Part shown: positions 4,306 to 11,923 of the stretch, piece by piece
How positions within the stretch are numbered: position 1 is the stretch's first letter
Layout: every line of letters begins with the position of its first letter
NCBI GenBank assembly: GCA_964373225.1
Contig: CAYJTW010000003.1
Span: 1 to 38,985, forward strand
DNA: 38,985 nucleotides
From: an uncultured Candidatus Peribacteria bacterium
Lineage (GTDB): Bacteria; Patescibacteriota; Gracilibacteria; Peribacterales; Peribacteraceae
Direction of reading: 5' to 3'
Program-made: the position numbers and the translations under genes
The notes under the pieces: model-generated
Seen by the model: the letters and a program-made list of their open reading frames with translations, nothing else
Databases searched by the model: none
What the model was told of the DNA's origin: nothing

Positions 4306-5067
4306 ATGAAGGGAGTACTCATCTGTGGTGGCTCCGGAACAAGACTTCGTCCACTGACGGAGATCACCAATAAAAGTCTGCTTCCGGTCTATGACCGGCC
4401 GCTGATCGAATATCCGCTCGGCAAACTCGTCGATGCGGGCATCACCGATATCGTTGTGATTTCCGGCAACGAGCACATCGACCAGATGGCGTCGTATCTG
4501 GGGAGCGGCGGACGGTTTGGATGCAAGTTCACGTACAGAGTGCAGGACAAGCCCCAGGGAATCGCGCAGGCACTCGGTATGGCGGAGGAATTCGCCGAAG
4601 GCCACAGCGTCTGCGCGATTCTCGGCGACAATATCTATTTCGACGATCTCTCGCCCGCGATCACATCGTTCAAGAAAGGGGGCCACGTGTTCCTCAAAGA
4701 GGTTCCCGATGCGGAGAGATTTGGAGTAGCGTCCCTCGCTACGCCCCGCACCCTTCTGCGGAAAGGTGCGAGGGCTACTCGGGATGACAATCGCGTTCAG
4801 GTTGAATCAATTGAAGAGAAACCCAAGAAGCCCAAGAGCAATTTCGCCGTCACGGGATGCTACGTCTACGATCACCGGTGCTTCGAGATCATCAGGAATC
4901 TGAAGCCCTCCGCGCGCGGGGAGTTCGAAATCACCGATGTCAGCCGCTGGTATCTGGAGCACGGCGAACTGACCGCGAGCGTGCTCAAAGACGAATGGAT
5001 TGATGCGGGGACGTTCGAGAGTCTCTTCAAAGCCGCGCAGTTGGTGCGGGAAAAGAAATCAGTATAA
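4306..5067 (+). CDS. Sugar-1-phosphate nucleotidyltransferase, short RmlA-like (glucose-1-phosphate thymidylyltransferase family)
   Basis: MKGVLICGGSGTRLRPLT (G-x-G-T-R-L signature), LGDNI, EEKPKKPKSNFAVTGCYVY. The ATG at 4306 is preferred over the GTG at 4291. Sugar and nucleotide specificity are inferred only from the neighbouring dTDP-sugar genes. Confidence 0.85.
   Translation: MKGVLICGGSGTRLRPLTEITNKSLLPVYDRPLIEYPLGKLVDAGITDIVVISGNEHIDQMASYLGSGGRFGCKFTYRVQDKPQGIAQALGMAEEFAEGHSVCAILGDNIYFDDLSPAITSFKKGGHVFLKEVPDAERFGVASLATPRTLLRKGARATRDDNRVQVESIEEKPKKPKSNFAVTGCYVYDHRCFEIIRNLKPSARGEFEITDVSRWYLEHGELTASVLKDEWIDAGTFESLFKAAQLVREKKSV
4724..4780. repeat. 57-nt bulged palindrome lying in-frame inside the RmlA-like CDS
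   Basis: GAGTAGC-GTC-CCTCGC (4724-4739) pairs with GCGAGGGCTACTC (4768-4780), giving 13 bp with a 3-nt bulge. An inner CCGCA/TGCGG stem is also present. Translated as GVASLATPRTLLRKGARATRD. Confidence 0.7.
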
Positions 5068-6150
5068 CGCCGCATACCGCTCTGCAATCCCGTCCCAGTC
5101 AAATTTCCGCGCATGCTCCACCGCCGCATCGGCCAGTTGCGTGCGGAATTTTTCGTCTTCGAGAAACATCCCCAGCACTCCGGCGGTCAGTTCCGGATTA
5201 TCGGGTTCTGTCAGCAGTCCCGTGACGCCGTCATGGACGACTTCGGGGATTCCTCCAATCTCCGTGCCGAGCACCGCGCAGCCGGCCGCTTGTGCTTCGA
5301 TGAAGACATTGCCCAGCGCTTCGGACCGCGAGAGCGCGCAGAAGATTTCGGCTTCGGCGTATTCTTGATACACAGATTGTCCGGTAAGAGCTCCGCAGAA
5401 CGTCACATGGGGTACGTTTCCATATTTCCTGCGTAAGTCGCCAAAAAGAGATCCGCTTCCGACAATATGAAGGGTTGCTGACGGATGCTGGTCATGAACG
5501 GAAACAAATGCTGCCAAGAGAGTATCCACACCTTTCATCTTCTCCAATCTTCCGACGAAGAGAATTCTCCCGGGGACTTTCTTCACCTCGCCGCACACTT
5601 TCCGGATCTCATCGTATGGAATGCCGTTCGGGATCACGATCGCATCCCGTCGTCCGAGTTTTGCTGCCTGATCTGCCAGTACTTTGCTGATGGCGGTAAT
5701 CACGTCCGGCGTTCTCATGATGTGATGGCGCAAAAAGTTCCGGTTCGTCGTCTGCAGCGTCAAAATCTGCTTCGCGTGAGGAACGACCAGGGTGCACATG
5801 TGGAGCGCGGCCCCGGCGAAGGTTTCGAGCACGGCATGGAGCACATCAGGCTTAAGCTTCCGCGCCGCGAACGGCGCGAGGAAGGGGTAGAGCCATTTAT
5901 CGAACGGAATGCCGAAGCCGACACGGATCACCGGCACCCCCCGGCCCACCTCACCCCCCGGCCCCCTCTCCGTGCCGCACGGAGAGGGGGAGAGGACATC
6001 CCGACGTGGAAGATCTCCCCGTAATTTTGCGGTGATGATCGTGATATCGAAGCGATCGCAGAGTCTCAGCGCCACTTCTTCGGCACATGCCTCCGCGCCG
6101 CTGCGAAACGGCGTGAGGAAGGCCGAGAAGATGACGATGCGACGGTTCAA
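5059..6150 (-). CDS. Glycosyltransferase family 4 (GT-B, glycosyl transferases group 1)
   Basis: 363 aa. C-terminal domain motifs LFVGRLEKMKGVD, SRSEALGNVFIEAQAAGCAVLGTEIGGIPEVV...G. The only in-frame start is TTG at 6150. Confidence 0.9.
   Translation of the reverse strand: MNRRIVIFSAFLTPFRSGAEACAEEVALRLCDRFDITIITAKLRGDLPRRDVLSPSPCGTERGPGGEVGRGVPVIRVGFGIPFDKWLYPFLAPFAARKLKPDVLHAVLETFAGAALHMCTLVVPHAKQILTLQTTNRNFLRHHIMRTPDVITAISKVLADQAAKLGRRDAIVIPNGIPYDEIRKVCGEVKKVPGRILFVGRLEKMKGVDTLLAAFVSVHDQHPSATLHIVGSGSLFGDLRRKYGNVPHVTFCGALTGQSVYQEYAEAEIFCALSRSEALGNVFIEAQAAGCAVLGTEIGGIPEVVHDGVTGLLTEPDNPELTAGVLGMFLEDEKFRTQLADAAVEHARKFDWDGIAERYAALY
5935..5990. repeat. In-CDS direct repeats plus a perfect hairpin
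   Basis: CACCCCCCGGCCC occurs at 5935-5947 and 5952-5964. A perfect 13-bp stem CCCCCTCTCCGTG / CACGGAGAGGGGG with a 3-nt loop lies at 5962-5990. On the minus strand it is translated as ...SPSPCGTERGPGGEVGRGVP... inside the GT4. Confidence 0.8.
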
Positions 6151-6180
6151 TGGAGAATGCAGAACGAAGAATGGAGAATT
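6149..6180. repeat. Left 32-nt terminal inverted repeat of the four-helix-bundle cassette
   Basis: AATGGAGAATGCAGAACGAAGAATGGAGAATT. Built from four tandem heptamers (GGAGAAT GCAGAAC GAAGAAT GGAGAAT). By hand alignment, 27/32 identical to the reverse complement of 6571-6602. Confidence 0.8.
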
Positions 6181-6535
6181 ATAAGAGATTCTTTTTTGCT
6201 GTATTTATGCTGGCAACCAATAGGGAAATGATCTCATTCAGTTCAAGCAATAACGATTGCGCTTCTTTCACGAATATTGGAGTTGTATCTCGGATAAGAC
6301 GGAGCCAAAAATCTGATTCGTTACCTTCTTTCAAAGCGATAGAAAGCTTTGAAATAAAATCGGGTTTGCTTTGTGCATGAGCTGCTTCTGCAACATTTGC
6401 CCCAATGCTGGTGCCTGATTTCAGTAATTGCTTGCTCAGAATGTATTCTTTTTCCTTCTGCATTTTTCTACAGAAATGAACAATCTTTATACTGAATGCA
6501 TAGGACTTGTCCCGAAGAGGATTTGGCTTCGCCAT
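6179..6535 (-). CDS. Four-helix-bundle protein (23S rRNA intervening-sequence protein / DGR Avd-like family)
   Basis: 118 aa. SYAFSIKIV.FC......EY.LSKQLLKSGTSIGANVAEA......DFISKLSIALKE..ES.FWL.L is the typical signature of this family. Confidence 0.85.
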   Translation of the reverse strand: MAKPNPLRDKSYAFSIKIVHFCRKMQKEKEYILSKQLLKSGTSIGANVAEAAHAQSKPDFISKLSIALKEGNESDFWLRLIRDTTPIFVKEAQSLLLELNEIISLLVASINTAKKNLL

Positions 6536-6570
6536 AGCTTATTACTGTCGAATATTCCCTATCAAAAGTC

Positions 6571-6602
6571 AATTCTCCGTTCTTCATTCTCCGTTCTCCG
6601 TT
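6571..6602. repeat. Right 32-nt terminal inverted repeat of the four-helix-bundle cassette
   Basis: AATTCTCCGTTCTTCATTCTCCGTTCTCCGTT, with heptamer periodicity. It overlaps the last codons (..ITENGE) and the stop codon of the GT4 gene 6584..7729. Confidence 0.8.
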
Positions 6603-7729
6603 ATCTTGAATAATTTCAAATATTTCTCACCCACAACGTCCCAGCTGAATCTCTCGTCAATTCTCCTTCTCGCTGCCTCACCCATCATCCTCCGCTTCGC
6701 GGGATCTTCGATCAATCGCCGCAGATGCGCCGCCAGAGCTTCACGATCACCGGCGGGGAACAGGAATCCCGAGACGCCGTTCTGGATCAAAAACGCATTG
6801 CCGCCAACATCAGACGCAACGCACGCGCACCCGCTCGCCATCGCTTCCATCAGCGCGTTGCTCAGCCCTTCGCTGTGGCTGGGGAGAACGAAGATATCGG
6901 TCTTTGCGAGGATCTCGGGAATATCGGAACGAAGGCCGGTGAACGTCACCTGATGCTCGTACTGCTTCACGAGCGGATGTTCCTCCTTATACCAGCCGAC
7001 GACCTGTATGGTGATGTCAGGGAAAGTATTTTTGAGCGGCACGGCGGCGGCCAGAAAGTCGTCGACGCCCTTTACCGATTCAAGTCTGCCAACGTATGTG
7101 ATAGTGACGGGTTTCGGGTTTCGGGTTTCGGGTTCTGTACTCGCAACCCATAACCCGTAACCCGAAACGTCTATCCCCGTCGGTATCACTTCCGATTTTT
7201 TCCATACACCCATCCGCTTCAGGAGTTTTTCCGGTTGTGGATGATAGAAGACGATGCGCTCCGCGCAGAGCATGACCGCCCACCCGAGCGTCCACGCGTA
7301 GATCGCTGCGGCGGTCTTCGGAATCCACCCGCGCGGCCACCACGTGATGCCGACGAGCGTGTCGGTCAGCAGGATCGGGCGGTACCCGCGCAGCCGCAGC
7401 GCGATCACGGAGAACGAACTCCAGAAGAGGATTTTATTGCAGACAATCAGGTCGGGACGTTCATCGCGGATGATGCGGCGCACGAATCCTGAAAATCCCA
7501 ACGCGATGCCATAGTTCCACGGATCGGGCAGATAGAAATCTTTCTTCCGATACATCGTGAGAGAATCGGATAGAACATCCTTGGACTCTTTGGAATCCTT
7601 TTTCTCGCCCATGCAGGCGACGACCACGCGATACCCGAGCCGCTGCCACAGCTCAGCCAGTTTCACCGTGCTGACCATCCAGCGATGGGGTTCTTTCCAG
7701 TAGGGGCTGATGAGGAGGATGGTCGACAT
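6584..7729 (-). CDS. Glycosyltransferase family 4 (GT-B)
   Basis: 381 aa. TYVGRLESVKGVD, LPSHSEGLSNALMEAMASGCACVASDVGGNAFLIQNGVSGFL (E-x7-E region). ATG at 7729. Confidence 0.9.
   Translation of the reverse strand: MSTILLISPYWKEPHRWMVSTVKLAELWQRLGYRVVVACMGEKKDSKESKDVLSDSLTMYRKKDFYLPDPWNYGIALGFSGFVRRIIRDERPDLIVCNKILFWSSFSVIALRLRGYRPILLTDTLVGITWWPRGWIPKTAAAIYAWTLGWAVMLCAERIVFYHPQPEKLLKRMGVWKKSEVIPTGIDVSGYGLWVASTEPETRNPKPVTITYVGRLESVKGVDDFLAAAVPLKNTFPDITIQVVGWYKEEHPLVKQYEHQVTFTGLRSDIPEILAKTDIFVLPSHSEGLSNALMEAMASGCACVASDVGGNAFLIQNGVSGFLFPAGDREALAAHLRRLIEDPAKRRMMGEAARRRIDERFSWDVVGEKYLKLFKITENGE
7106..7171. repeat. 66-nt hairpin with heptamer-repeat arms, in-frame inside the GT4 CDS
   Basis: The left arm is GAC(GGGTTTC)x3GGGTT (7106-7134). 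The right arm is AACCCATAACCCGTAACCCGAAACGTC (7145-7171), whose reverse complement is GACGTTTCGGGTTACGGGTTATGGGTT. The loop is 10 nt. Exactly 22 codons, translated as DVSGYGLWVASTEPETRNPKPV. Confidence 0.85.
7578..7606. repeat. In-CDS copy of the 9-mer-array element found at 8293-8329
   Basis: TCCTTGGACTCTTTGGAATC (7578-7597) is 19/20 identical to 8293-8312, and both are followed by TTTTTCTC. Translated on the minus strand as EKKDSKESKD. Confidence 0.75.
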
Positions 7730-7735
7730 GAAAAG

Positions 7736-7798
7736 GAGGCAAGAGAGGCAAGGGAGGCAGAAGAGGCAAGAGAGGCAAGGGAGTGAAAGGAGGCAAAG
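7736..7798. repeat. Seven tandem 9-mers (GAGGCAAGR consensus) in an intergenic spacer
   Basis: GAGGCAAGA GAGGCAAGG GAGGCAGAA GAGGCAAGA GAGGCAAGG GAGTGAAAG GAGGCAAAG. They fill most of the gap between the DUF2304 stop (7807) and the GT4 start (7729). Confidence 0.85.
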
Positions 7799-7806
7799 GA
7801 ATGAGT

Positions 7807-8193
7807 TTACTCCTTTGTCTCCTTTTCTTCTTTTTCAAGCCCCGCTTCCCGCAGCGCCAACTCTCTTACGATCCTGGCATGCCGCTGTTCGAGCTCCTCC
7901 AGGCGGATGATCATGTAGAAGACGATGAAGAAGAGGATGCCGAGGAAAGTGAAGATCACGGCGTTCTCGCGGTTGGCAATGCCCGTGACGGTCGAGAGGT
8001 AGGTGAGGAACGGCGGGAACATCGCGATCGCCGCGATCGCCCCCCAGAAGATTGTCCAAAAACACGCTTCCCACACCGTCTTCTTCTGTCGCATCACCAG
8101 GTTCCACGCGTACACGATCGCGACAATCGCGATCAGTGGAGCGACGATTTGGTAGGGGGTAAGCGTCATAGGAACGTGAGAGGTAGTGTACAT
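7807..8193 (-). CDS. DUF2304-like small membrane protein (usual partner of GtrB/DPM1-like GT2 enzymes)
   Basis: Three predicted TM helices followed by a charged C-terminal helix (EELEQRHARIVRELALRE). It sits immediately downstream of a GT2 gene, as is typical for DUF2304. The start may instead be the ATG at 8169. Confidence 0.7.
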   Translation of the reverse strand: MYTTSHVPMTLTPYQIVAPLIAIVAIVYAWNLVMRQKKTVWEACFWTIFWGAIAAIAMFPPFLTYLSTVTGIANRENAVIFTFLGILFFIVFYMIIRLEELEQRHARIVRELALREAGLEKEEKETKE

Positions 8194-8200
8194 TTCGCGC

Positions 8201-8324
8201 AGAGGATTCCAAGGAGTCCAAAGATTCCGAGGACCAGTTGGCGAGGGTGCAAGTGAAGCGGGGGAAGGTCACGATTCTCCCATTCCGTCTGGTCCTTGGA
8301 CTCCTTGGAATCTTCGGACTCTTT
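8201..8324. repeat. Large inverted repeat whose arms are 9-mer arrays
   Basis: The left arm is 8201-8237 (..GATTCCAAG GAGTCCAAA GATTCCGAG GACCAG). The right arm is 8289-8324 (CTGGTC CTTGGACTC CTTGGAATC TTCGGACTC). A spacer of about 50 nt separates them. The repeat lies between the DUF2304 start and the GT2 stop. Confidence 0.8.
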
Positions 8325-8334
8325 TTCTCAATAT

Positions 8335-9003
8335 TTAGCGTAGGAAAGATCTTAGGAGGATCTTCATTGCAGTTTTGACTCCATTCCCGAACGATTGCCC
8401 CTTCGCAAGCGTGTACTCGGAGTAGATCACCTTGGTCGGCACCTGCGCGATCCGCCACTTGTGCTGGCAGGCCTCGCGGACGATTTCGGTGCAGAATTCA
8501 AACCCCCGCATGCGCAGATCAATCTGCGCCAGTGCCCGCGGACCGATCACTTTGTATCCCGACTGGCTGTCTTGGACCCACATGCCGGTCGCGAGCCACG
8601 TCACGATGTTGCCGATGCCATTGAAGACACGACGAATGAGCGGGATACGGTTGCGGTGAGCGAAGCGGTTGCTGAAGACGATATCGGCCGTGTCGTCTTT
8701 GACCGGTCGCAGAAGCCGGGGAATATCGGAAGGATCATGTTGCTCGTCGGCATCAAGAGTGACGACGGTGGTTGCGCCCATGCGGCGCGCCGCTTCGATC
8801 CCCGTCATCGTTGCCGCCCCCGCGCCGCCGTTTTCCGCATGACGGATCACCGTCGCCCCCGCGTGCCTGGCCACCTCCGCGGTTGCATCCGTCGATCCGT
8901 CATCGACGACGATCACCGCGTCCACAAATCCTTTGGCGGCCGCAACAACATTGCCGACGCGCGTTGCTTCGTTGTATGCGGGGATGATGGCAACGATAGT
9001 CAT
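8335..9003 (-). CDS. GT2 glycosyltransferase, polyprenyl-phosphate sugar synthase-like (GtrB/CsbB/DPM1 type)
   Basis: 222 aa. VAIIPAYNE, VVDDGSTD, LDADEQHDP.DIP.LL. The ATGA start/stop overlap with the upstream membrane-protein gene at 9000-9003 indicates translational coupling. Confidence 0.85.
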   Translation of the reverse strand: MTIVAIIPAYNEATRVGNVVAAAKGFVDAVIVVDDGSTDATAEVARHAGATVIRHAENGGAGAATMTGIEAARRMGATTVVTLDADEQHDPSDIPRLLRPVKDDTADIVFSNRFAHRNRIPLIRRVFNGIGNIVTWLATGMWVQDSQSGYKVIGPRALAQIDLRMRGFEFCTEIVREACQHKWRIAQVPTKVIYSEYTLAKGQSFGNGVKTAMKILLRSFLR

Positions 9004-11824: not shown

Positions 11825-11891
11825 CTCGTTCACTCGTTCATTCGTTAACTCGTGTTTATGACGTACGAATTAACCAGTTAACGAATTAACG
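11825..11891. repeat. Inverted repeat with octamer-repeat arms in a divergent intergenic region (possible operator)
   Basis: The left arm is CTCGTTCA CTCGTTCA TTCGTTAA CTCGTG. The reverse complement of the right arm is CGTTAA TTCGTTAA CTGGTTAA TTCGTA. The perfect 11-bp core is ATTCGTTAACT (11840-11850) / AGTTAACGAAT (11876-11886). Confidence 0.7.
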
Positions 11892-11923
11892 TGTTTGCGG
11901 TCTCCTCTATACTCTTTTCTCTT

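Follow-up and report, generated by a model that had tools for sequence, protein, structure and literature searches.

We report that a 66-nt hairpin built from heptamer arrays is read in frame within a glycosyltransferase gene of an uncultured Candidatus Peribacteria bacterium. The hairpin is probably a palindromic repeat of a selfish or neutral kind. Having taken the place of the central part of the linker between the two domains of the enzyme, it would be translated as a disordered loop and have been filtered by selection to this permissive site. It is located at positions 7106-7171 of a 38,985-nt stretch of DNA (contig CAYJTW010000003.1, positions 1 to 38,985 of the forward strand), the whole of which is referred to below as the window. 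The window belongs to a metagenome-assembled genome (MAG) from groundwater (GCA_964373225.1; 1.07 Mb, 131 contigs, 86% complete, 56.6% GC). The host gene (6584..7729, minus strand) was identified by Pfam and by its orthologues as a GT4 (GT-B) glycosyltransferase of 381 amino acids, and the hairpin corresponds exactly to its codons 187-208 (D187-V208), which are read as DVSGYGLWVASTEPETRNPKPV and followed by TITYVGRLESVKG.

On the plus strand, the element reads GAC(GGGTTTC)x3GGGTT-CTGTACTCGC-AACCCATAACCCGTAACCCGAAACGTC, where CTGTACTCGC is a 10-nt spacer. In the mRNA sense (minus strand), the 5' arm (7145..7171) is a degenerate heptamer array, GAC GTTTCGG GTTACGG GTTATGG GTT, that codes for D187 and the conserved aromatic residue Y190. 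It is followed by the 10-nt loop (7135..7144; GCGAGUACAG in the mRNA) and by the 3' arm (7106..7134), which is a perfect (GAAACCC)x3.9 array plus GTC. Tandem Repeats Finder detected two arrays, (CGGGTTT)x3.9 with 100% matches (7108-7134) and (AACCCGT)x3.4 (7145-7168), and a repeat finder paired 7111-7134 with 7145-7168 as arms of 24 nt each that are 88% complementary and separated by 10 nt. An earlier reading of the sequence alone had described an in-frame hairpin of 22 codons in the GT4 linker, with a 10-nt loop and an imperfect stem of about 27 bp. Open reading frame (ORF) analysis, folding, and repeat finding bore out the frame, the loop, and the imperfect stem, which proved to be shorter: it comprises 21 pairs in three blocks (9 + 6 + 6), or approximately 24 when the outer GAC/GTC are counted.

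The coding-strand RNA of the hairpin with 10-nt flanks folds at -41.5 kcal/mol, compared with -22.8 kcal/mol (SD 3.2) for shuffled sequences (z = -5.9), and none of 200 dinucleotide shuffles was as stable. The DNA fold of the region has a z-score of -6.5. To keep the encoded peptide constant, the 22 residues were recoded synonymously 3,000 times with codons drawn at local usage. The recoded versions averaged -21.4 kcal/mol (SD 3.7), so the peptide alone favors some pairing, but the observed value was -35.4 kcal/mol and only 1 of the 3,000 was as stable, which excludes a coincidence of codon choice. In addition, the array pattern has three matches in the window, where 0.34 are expected. An assembly chimera might be suspected in a fragmented MAG, but the imperfect arms are read in frame, and independent assemblies of other species have elements of this kind at the corresponding site. 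Chance or artefact is thus a very improbable explanation of the hairpin.

The plus (template) strand at 7109-7132 carries four GGG tracts with TTTC spacers (GGGTTTCGGGTTTCGGGTTTCGGG), a motif through which the (GGGTTTC)4 template strand could form a G-quadruplex. A search for known RNA families with Rfam at gathering thresholds returned only a tRNA in the window; at permissive E-values, sub-threshold miRNA-precursor look-alikes fell on the hairpin and were judged to be generic hairpin noise. An intrinsic terminator was ruled out, as there is no U-run 3' of the stem in the mRNA sense.

The GT4 protein is conserved across Peribacteria, with 62-89% identity in 80 species, and has close orthologues in all of Candidatus Peribacteria/Peregrinibacteria. 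Pfam assigns residues 20-188 to Glyco_transf_4 and residues 201-356 to Glycos_transf_1, and the hairpin segment lies between both domains. In agreement with the surface loop suggested earlier, an AlphaFold2 model built on 48 orthologues (mean predicted local distance difference test score [pLDDT], 89.7) shows the segment as a low-confidence coil: residues 191-200 have an average pLDDT of 57, and residues 192-208 are modeled as a coil that connects the final N-domain strand to the C-domain strand 209-213. At the sequence level, the solved GT4 structures 6kih and PimA align through the linker region without a large gap, and the 24 residues of the window copy are therefore a normal linker length among GT4 proteins at large.

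To compare the linker between species, 80 orthologous loci, each from a different species, were fetched, and the linker DNA between the PTGID and YVGRLES motifs was extracted in 74 of them. Linker length varied from 15 to 48 amino acids with a mode of 17-19, so that the 24 residues in the window correspond to a net gain of about +7 amino acids over the modal linker. Fold z-scores were calculated against mononucleotide shuffles, and a hairpin was called at z ≤ -2.5; gains and losses were counted on a tree obtained in a quick LG+G4 search with the linker masked. The window linker had the most extreme fold of all 74 (z = -8.7). Short linkers were unfolded, whereas the majority of long linkers were folded. 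Hairpins were present in 21 of the 74 linkers, a distribution that needs at least 19 state changes on the tree, and heptamer arrays of at least three units in 27, which need at least 20. No such array was found in 365 control windows taken from the C-domain coding region of the same genes.

Hairpins with heptamer arms occur at the linker of many orthologues, and their unit differs from one to the next. Examples of such units are GAGGTCT/CCTCAAA in orthologue L064, GTCACTG/GCGACAA in L032, CTCGTTN/GAGCAAC in L051, CATCCAN/GATGGTN in L004, and GGGGCGT/ACGCCCC in L075, and AGCTCAC arms were found in L012, L057, and L074. One-armed arrays are exemplified by (CAATCAC)x12 in L069 and (CCAGAGN)x8 in L013. 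When the 5' half of a linker was combined with foreign 3' halves, the true partner was the best of all in 7 of 38 linkers and among the top five in about 20 of 38, indicating that the arms are specifically complementary within each species. Hairpins at exactly this linker in 21 of 74 species, each pairing with its own partner although the units differ, look like conservation of structure with turnover of sequence. This would favor a selected cis-acting nucleic acid structure, of which the peptide is a by-product; it might be an mRNA stem that pauses ribosomes between the Rossmann halves to allow co-translational folding, a site for an RNase III-type cut, like that in rRNA intervening sequences, that sets mRNA stability, or a G-quadruplex on the template that throttles transcription. 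The four GGG tracts with 4-nt loops on the plus strand are consistent with this idea, and four-unit G-rich heptamer arrays form G-quadruplexes in Xanthomonas and Nostoc (PMC4692102). Nevertheless, we consider a selected structure rather unlikely. Hairpin and array are both absent from about half of the orthologues, some of which are close sisters of hairpin bearers (L049 versus L075 and L071 versus L073), and the one-armed arrays of L069, L013, and L059 are unable to fold. Moreover, the stem is not followed by a U-tract, the GGGTTNC family is also found between genes and in unrelated genes, and the majority of the other families in the genome are not G-rich.

Comparison with close relatives revealed how far the content of the linker is exchanged. 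Orthologue L001 is the sister of the window GT4 (SH-aLRT, 97) and is 89% identical to it outside the linker, but its linker is wholly different and contains an unrelated GC-rich palindrome (…SPLLRPERSEGLAGEG…). This palindrome recurs in the distant L010, with approximately 90% identity over 49 nt and at an offset of seven codons, the L001 and L010 genes themselves being about 65-70% identical; the offset match suggests that a single family of mobile palindromes inserted independently in the two genes. In L002, which is less closely related, the linker has 24 residues and the related unit GGATTTC, and its partner arm has decayed, and in the close pair L049/L075, some 21 nt are replaced by approximately 63 nt in the hairpin-bearing gene. 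The GT4 linker is thus a hotspot that is filled, emptied, and refilled, and which ready-made palindromes enter. The alignment that had been proposed earlier, to see whether the segment is an insertion relative to its homologues, showed a hypervariable linker that, in the closest orthologue, is entirely different. No protein closer than L001 was present in a collection of 5.8 billion proteins, where the best non-self match was 78% identical, and a clean empty-site comparison was not obtainable for the window copy, as L001, its nearest orthologue, carries another element at this site. Separately, a GC-rich palindrome that resembles the one in L001 and L010 was noted in the neighboring GT4 gene (ORF 5059..6150). 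It is situated at about 5935-5990, has a perfect 13-bp stem (CCCCCUCUCCGUG/CACGGAGAGGGGG), and is read in frame as …SPSPCGTERGPGG….

Among the orthologues, D187 is invariant and the position of Y190 is a conserved aromatic. Since both residues lie inside the 5' arm and the net gain is approximately 7 amino acids, the event is a replacement of the linker core and not a clean insertion of 22 codons; of the two possibilities raised in the sequence-only reading, insertion and linker replacement by a palindromic element, the second is retained. The element is read as either happening to supply the aromatic residue or having been selected to do so.

The distribution of the repeat was analyzed by scanning 200 genomes of the order for GGGTTTCGGGTTTCGGGTT with at most two mismatches, using the reversed pattern as a control. 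Matches to (GGGTTNC)n were obtained in 34 of the 200 genomes, with up to 27-32 per genome, and the control pattern was nearly always absent (counts of about zero). In the genome itself, for which such a search had been suggested earlier, the repeat is single copy, but in its genus it is multicopy in seven of nine genomes. All copy numbers should be taken as minimum values, as the genome is incomplete and repeats break assemblies. Weak relatives in the genome itself are (GCAACCC)x3 at C61:3622-3642 and GYAACYC units at C6:12558-12585.

All inspected copies in relatives are two-armed hairpins of 60-115 nt. They occur between genes and also in frame in Pfam-supported genes for an HhH-GPD glycosylase, an RsmB/F methyltransferase, an AIRS-domain protein, and a Wzy_C ligase-like protein. 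The copy in the HhH-GPD gene encodes AGYGLRVTSPATRNPKPET, nearly the same peptide as the window copy, and the GGGTTAC variant, which is the source of the Tyr codon, is a normal family variant at other loci. With a hairpin family in frame in four other gene families, the behavior resembling that of Rickettsia palindromic elements (RPEs), which had been proposed from the sequence, is supported by the relatives. Two further loci deserve mention. At L093:343-977 of a relative, GGGTTNC arms enclose 535 nt with a 138-amino-acid ORF; this ORF matches no Pfam family, and the cargo is thus not a gene of the 23S_rRNA_IVP family (IVP; PF05635). An RsmB/F hairpin occupies the same site in two genomes of the same genus (G000:C8:9394-9510 and L096:331-444). 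The loop of this pair is homologous (…AIADS…), but the units of the arms are wholly different: one genome has (GAATGGA)/(CATTCTG), the other (GGGTTTC)/(GAAACCC).

The window hairpin is one of many elements of this build in its genome. In a census in which Tandem Repeats Finder arrays were paired by reverse-complementary units, we counted some 53 hairpins that have 7-, 8-, or 9-mer arms and enclose no gene, and a further dozen pairs whose cargo is longer. At least 7 of the approximately 53 are intragenic. Stop-free families are in frame in genes for RecG, FemAB, GT2, RsmB, HhH-GPD, and FAD-oxidoreductase proteins, where a Pfam domain lies on either side of the hairpin, whereas no open frame runs across the 8-mer families, in which TAA occurs. 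Crude in-ORF calls on contigs C14 and C43 were rejected as spurious frames. In one GT2 gene (G000:C35:241-447), inverted heptamer arms (EEWRMENGEWKM … NILHSQFSILHS) flank 47 genuine catalytic-domain residues, so that the "loop" of a hairpin can be host coding sequence.

Inverted arrays also flank six of the seven IVP genes of the genome and 17 of 25 IVP genes in five relatives, and four families of the genome have both gene-carrying and gene-less copies. One IVP element adjoins the gene studied here. It extends over 6149..6602 (minus strand) between two GT4 genes and consists of a four-helix-bundle ORF (6179..6535) inside inverted (GGAGAAT)n arms (6149-6180/6571-6602) that are 84% complementary; the right arm, 6571-6602, supplies the last codons (…ENGE*) and the stop codon of the studied GT4. 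The hairpin at 7106-7171, with its 10-nt loop and no ORF, is not itself such a cassette. An IVP cassette with GGGTTNC arms was found neither in the genome nor among the 25 IVP loci of the five relatives, and the nearest arms of an IVP cassette, GGATTTC/AATCCGT at locus L107 of a genome of the same genus (G107), show one compensated difference from GGGTTTC. Furthermore, reverse transcriptase fragments adjoin a weak IVP/Avd-like match at G000:C17:7297-8454, a candidate diversity-generating retroelement (DGR). A link of the hairpin to a DGR was rejected, as nothing ties this reverse transcriptase to 7106-7171.

In the explanation that we favor, the 66 nt would be a "solo" copy, one without a gene, of a dispersed repeat made of inverted (GGGTTNC)n/(GNAACCC)n arrays that shares its build with the arms bracketing small 23S_rRNA_IVP genes, and this copy would have taken the place of the core of the variable inter-domain linker. 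It could have survived there because GGGTTTC and its complement have no stop codon in any of the six frames, because only the total length must fit (66 = 22 x 3), and because the linker is predicted to be a disordered surface coil that is free in length and sequence. As 7 is coprime to 3, a heptamer array yields the same 7-residue periodic peptide in every frame; together with the lack of stop codons, this makes heptamer elements intrinsically easy to tolerate in coding sequence. We infer that the element is translated rather than processed and that it has no function for the enzyme, for which the translated loop is most likely neutral or slightly costly.

Several observations weigh against the replacement of the linker core by a mobile repeat. 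No second copy of the unit was detected at one or fewer mismatches in the genome, which is an 86% complete MAG, so that mobility there is deduced from relatives only. In the flanks of 11 copies, neither shared termini beyond the array nor a target-site duplication was seen, and we could link no transposase to the GGGTTNC family. Moreover, elements occupy the GT4 linker in about 30-47% of species, far more than would result from uniform insertion of approximately 50 elements per Mb, and tolerance alone may not explain this occupancy. Finally, the aspartate and the aromatic residue lie within the arm and the net gain is only some 7 amino acids, for which reason we keep as a rival an origin in situ, without any insertion, by 7-nt slippage on linker codons and formation of the second arm by intramolecular template switching. 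Consistent with such an origin, orthologues that lack a hairpin have G-Y-G codons (GGNTAYGG) similar to the unit GGTTACGG, the L074 unit GGCTATG begins on host G-Y codons, a linker of 24 amino acids is normal for GT4, and single arrays without an inverted partner are found in many orthologues. In addition, heptamer simple sequence repeats are overrepresented in bacteria (PMC4692102, PMC4679880). An origin in situ is nonetheless unlikely in our view. In sister genomes, many unrelated loci have hairpins made of GGGTTNC with the same N variants (T/A/G), which identifies the Y codon as a family variant and not a relic of the host, and a near-identical peptide is encoded in the HhH-GPD gene. The 49-nt palindrome shared by L001 and L010 at about 90% identity likewise shows that ready-made elements enter the linker.

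Two features, the RsmB hairpins with homologous loop and different arms and the high occupancy of the GT4 linker, are not fully explained by plain insertion plus tolerance. They give some scope to the selected structure and the origin in situ considered above, and both fit a further, more speculative possibility, namely, that paired heptamer arrays are actively rewritten, with the site remaining occupied while both arms swap their unit in concert; the linker occupancy concerned is about 30-47%, with at least 19 changes. We regard this as doubtful. It would imply a dedicated, templated process that targets hairpins already in place and maintains the pairing of their arms. The four-helix-bundle proteins of the IVP family, to which the DGR accessory protein Avd is related, may take part in it.

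Other repeats of this general kind were observed in the window. A fragment of a 9-mer array within the same GT4 gene (7577..7599, minus strand) is read in frame as KDSKESKD in an N-terminal variable loop, where GT4 orthologues also show length variation and repeats. This fragment is 91% complementary to 8203-8225, which is an arm of a hairpin at 8189-8337. The latter has 9-mer arms (AGGATTCCA / TCCTTGGAC) and a 51-nt loop and lies between a GT2 gene (8335..9003) and a DUF2304 gene (7807..8193). The genome has about eight similar copies, and an IVP gene lies within one pair (G000:C29:7286-7995); a 207-amino-acid frame over 8203-8321 was rejected as spurious. Directly 5' of the GT4 start codon, at 7732-7834, there are seven copies of a 9-mer (GAGGCAAGA), and an imperfect inverted partner of this array overlaps the end of the DUF2304 gene. 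An 8-mer-arm hairpin (CTCGTTCA / ACGAATTA) at 11825-11894, just after a gene for a 928-amino-acid membrane protein, is a member of the genome's most abundant family, which has approximately 17 copies, a 10-nt loop, and no open frame across it.

If our reading is correct, selfish DNA within protein genes, so far a curiosity of Rickettsia, extends to the Candidate Phyla Radiation (CPR), with a kind of element that differs from RPEs in being a hairpin with arms of 7-base tandem arrays. The GT4 linker offers a natural experiment: across 74 species, a gain, loss, or replacement has occurred at least 19 times, and the arms have changed in sequence without losing their complementarity. It can be used to ask how such repeats arise and spread, and whether a link to the IVP protein family exists. 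In practical terms, these segments inflate linker diversity, break MAG assemblies, and can mislead the annotation and alignment of CPR proteins. A rewriting mechanism, if true, would represent a bacterial DNA-editing or mobile system of a new type.

With regard to known systems, intervening sequences with an S23p/23S_rRNA_IVP ORF are found in the 23S and 16S rRNA of Leptospira, Coxiella, and other bacteria. The elements described here are like them in having a long stem with an optional four-helix-bundle ORF in the loop, and gene-less stems share units with IVP stems; unlike them, the window copy has a 10-nt loop with no ORF and is part of an mRNA, and Rfam assigned no rRNA helix to it. Repetitive extragenic palindromic (REP) elements, bacterial interspersed mosaic elements (BIMEs), and their REP-associated tyrosine transposases (RAYTs) provide a second comparison. 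The likeness consists in short, dispersed, imperfect palindromes, and a Y1_Tnp gene is present in the genome. However, REP elements are not armed with tandem repeats, and a REP/RAYT assignment was rejected because the Y1_Tnp ORF (G000:C1:5284-5745) is flanked by GC-rich GCGGGCCTTCGGCCCGC hairpins and not by heptamer arrays. This IS200/RAYT-like gene has GCGGGCCTTCGGCCCGC hairpins on both sides and three tandem copies downstream and is possibly a REP/RAYT pair in its own right.

Bacterial MITEs (miniature transposable elements with inverted repeats), such as Correia, ERIC, and BOX, have been found intragenically (PMC10969869). They are likewise small, nonautonomous, palindromic repeats for which in-frame fusions are possible, but for the window family we saw no terminal inverted repeat of fixed sequence, target-site duplication, or parent insertion sequence. 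In five complete Peribacteria genomes, strain variation consisted mainly of indels of tens of bp in twelve proteins, and hairpins of this type are not mentioned in that article (PMC4736985). Our literature search retrieved no paper that links heptamer hairpins to IVP genes or places them in frame in CPR genes.

Heptamer arrays as such are known from several groups. TAACTGA heptamers have been described in Beggiatoaceae, cyanobacteria, and Bacteroidetes, as have the cyanobacterial short tandemly repeated repetitive (STRR) sequences (PMC4679880). Closest to the arms studied here are the convergent pairs of GGGAATC arrays in Xanthomonas, with 70-75 pairs per genome, and of GGGGAYT arrays in Nostoc (Rehm et al. 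2015, PMC4692102). The window copy has in common with these pairs a 7-nt unit, about four copies, four G tracts, a stem-loop, and convergent arrays (3.9 + 3.4 units), and GGGTTTC differs from the Xanthomonas unit in the middle only. Unlike the Xanthomonas and Nostoc arrays, which are mostly intergenic, underrepresented in coding regions, and discussed as G-quadruplex formers (PMC4692102), the window copy lies fully inside an ORF. In-frame copies in conserved enzymes, turnover at an orthologous hotspot, and the link to IVP genes are absent from the descriptions of those arrays (PMC4692102).

The RPEs of Rickettsia (Ogata et al. 2000, as summarized in PMC10969869) are sequence families of about 100-150 bp, each with a conserved encoded peptide. 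The window family is like RPEs in being a multicopy palindrome that is found between genes and in frame in unrelated housekeeping genes, where it adds a surface segment compatible with the fold, and it differs from them in consisting of heptamer arrays of variable copy number, in its length of 60-90 nt, and in a unit that changes between genomes. Moreover, it is hosted by a member of the CPR, and its architecture is shared by elements with IVP genes. The resemblance to RPEs appears to be one of behavior and not of family membership.

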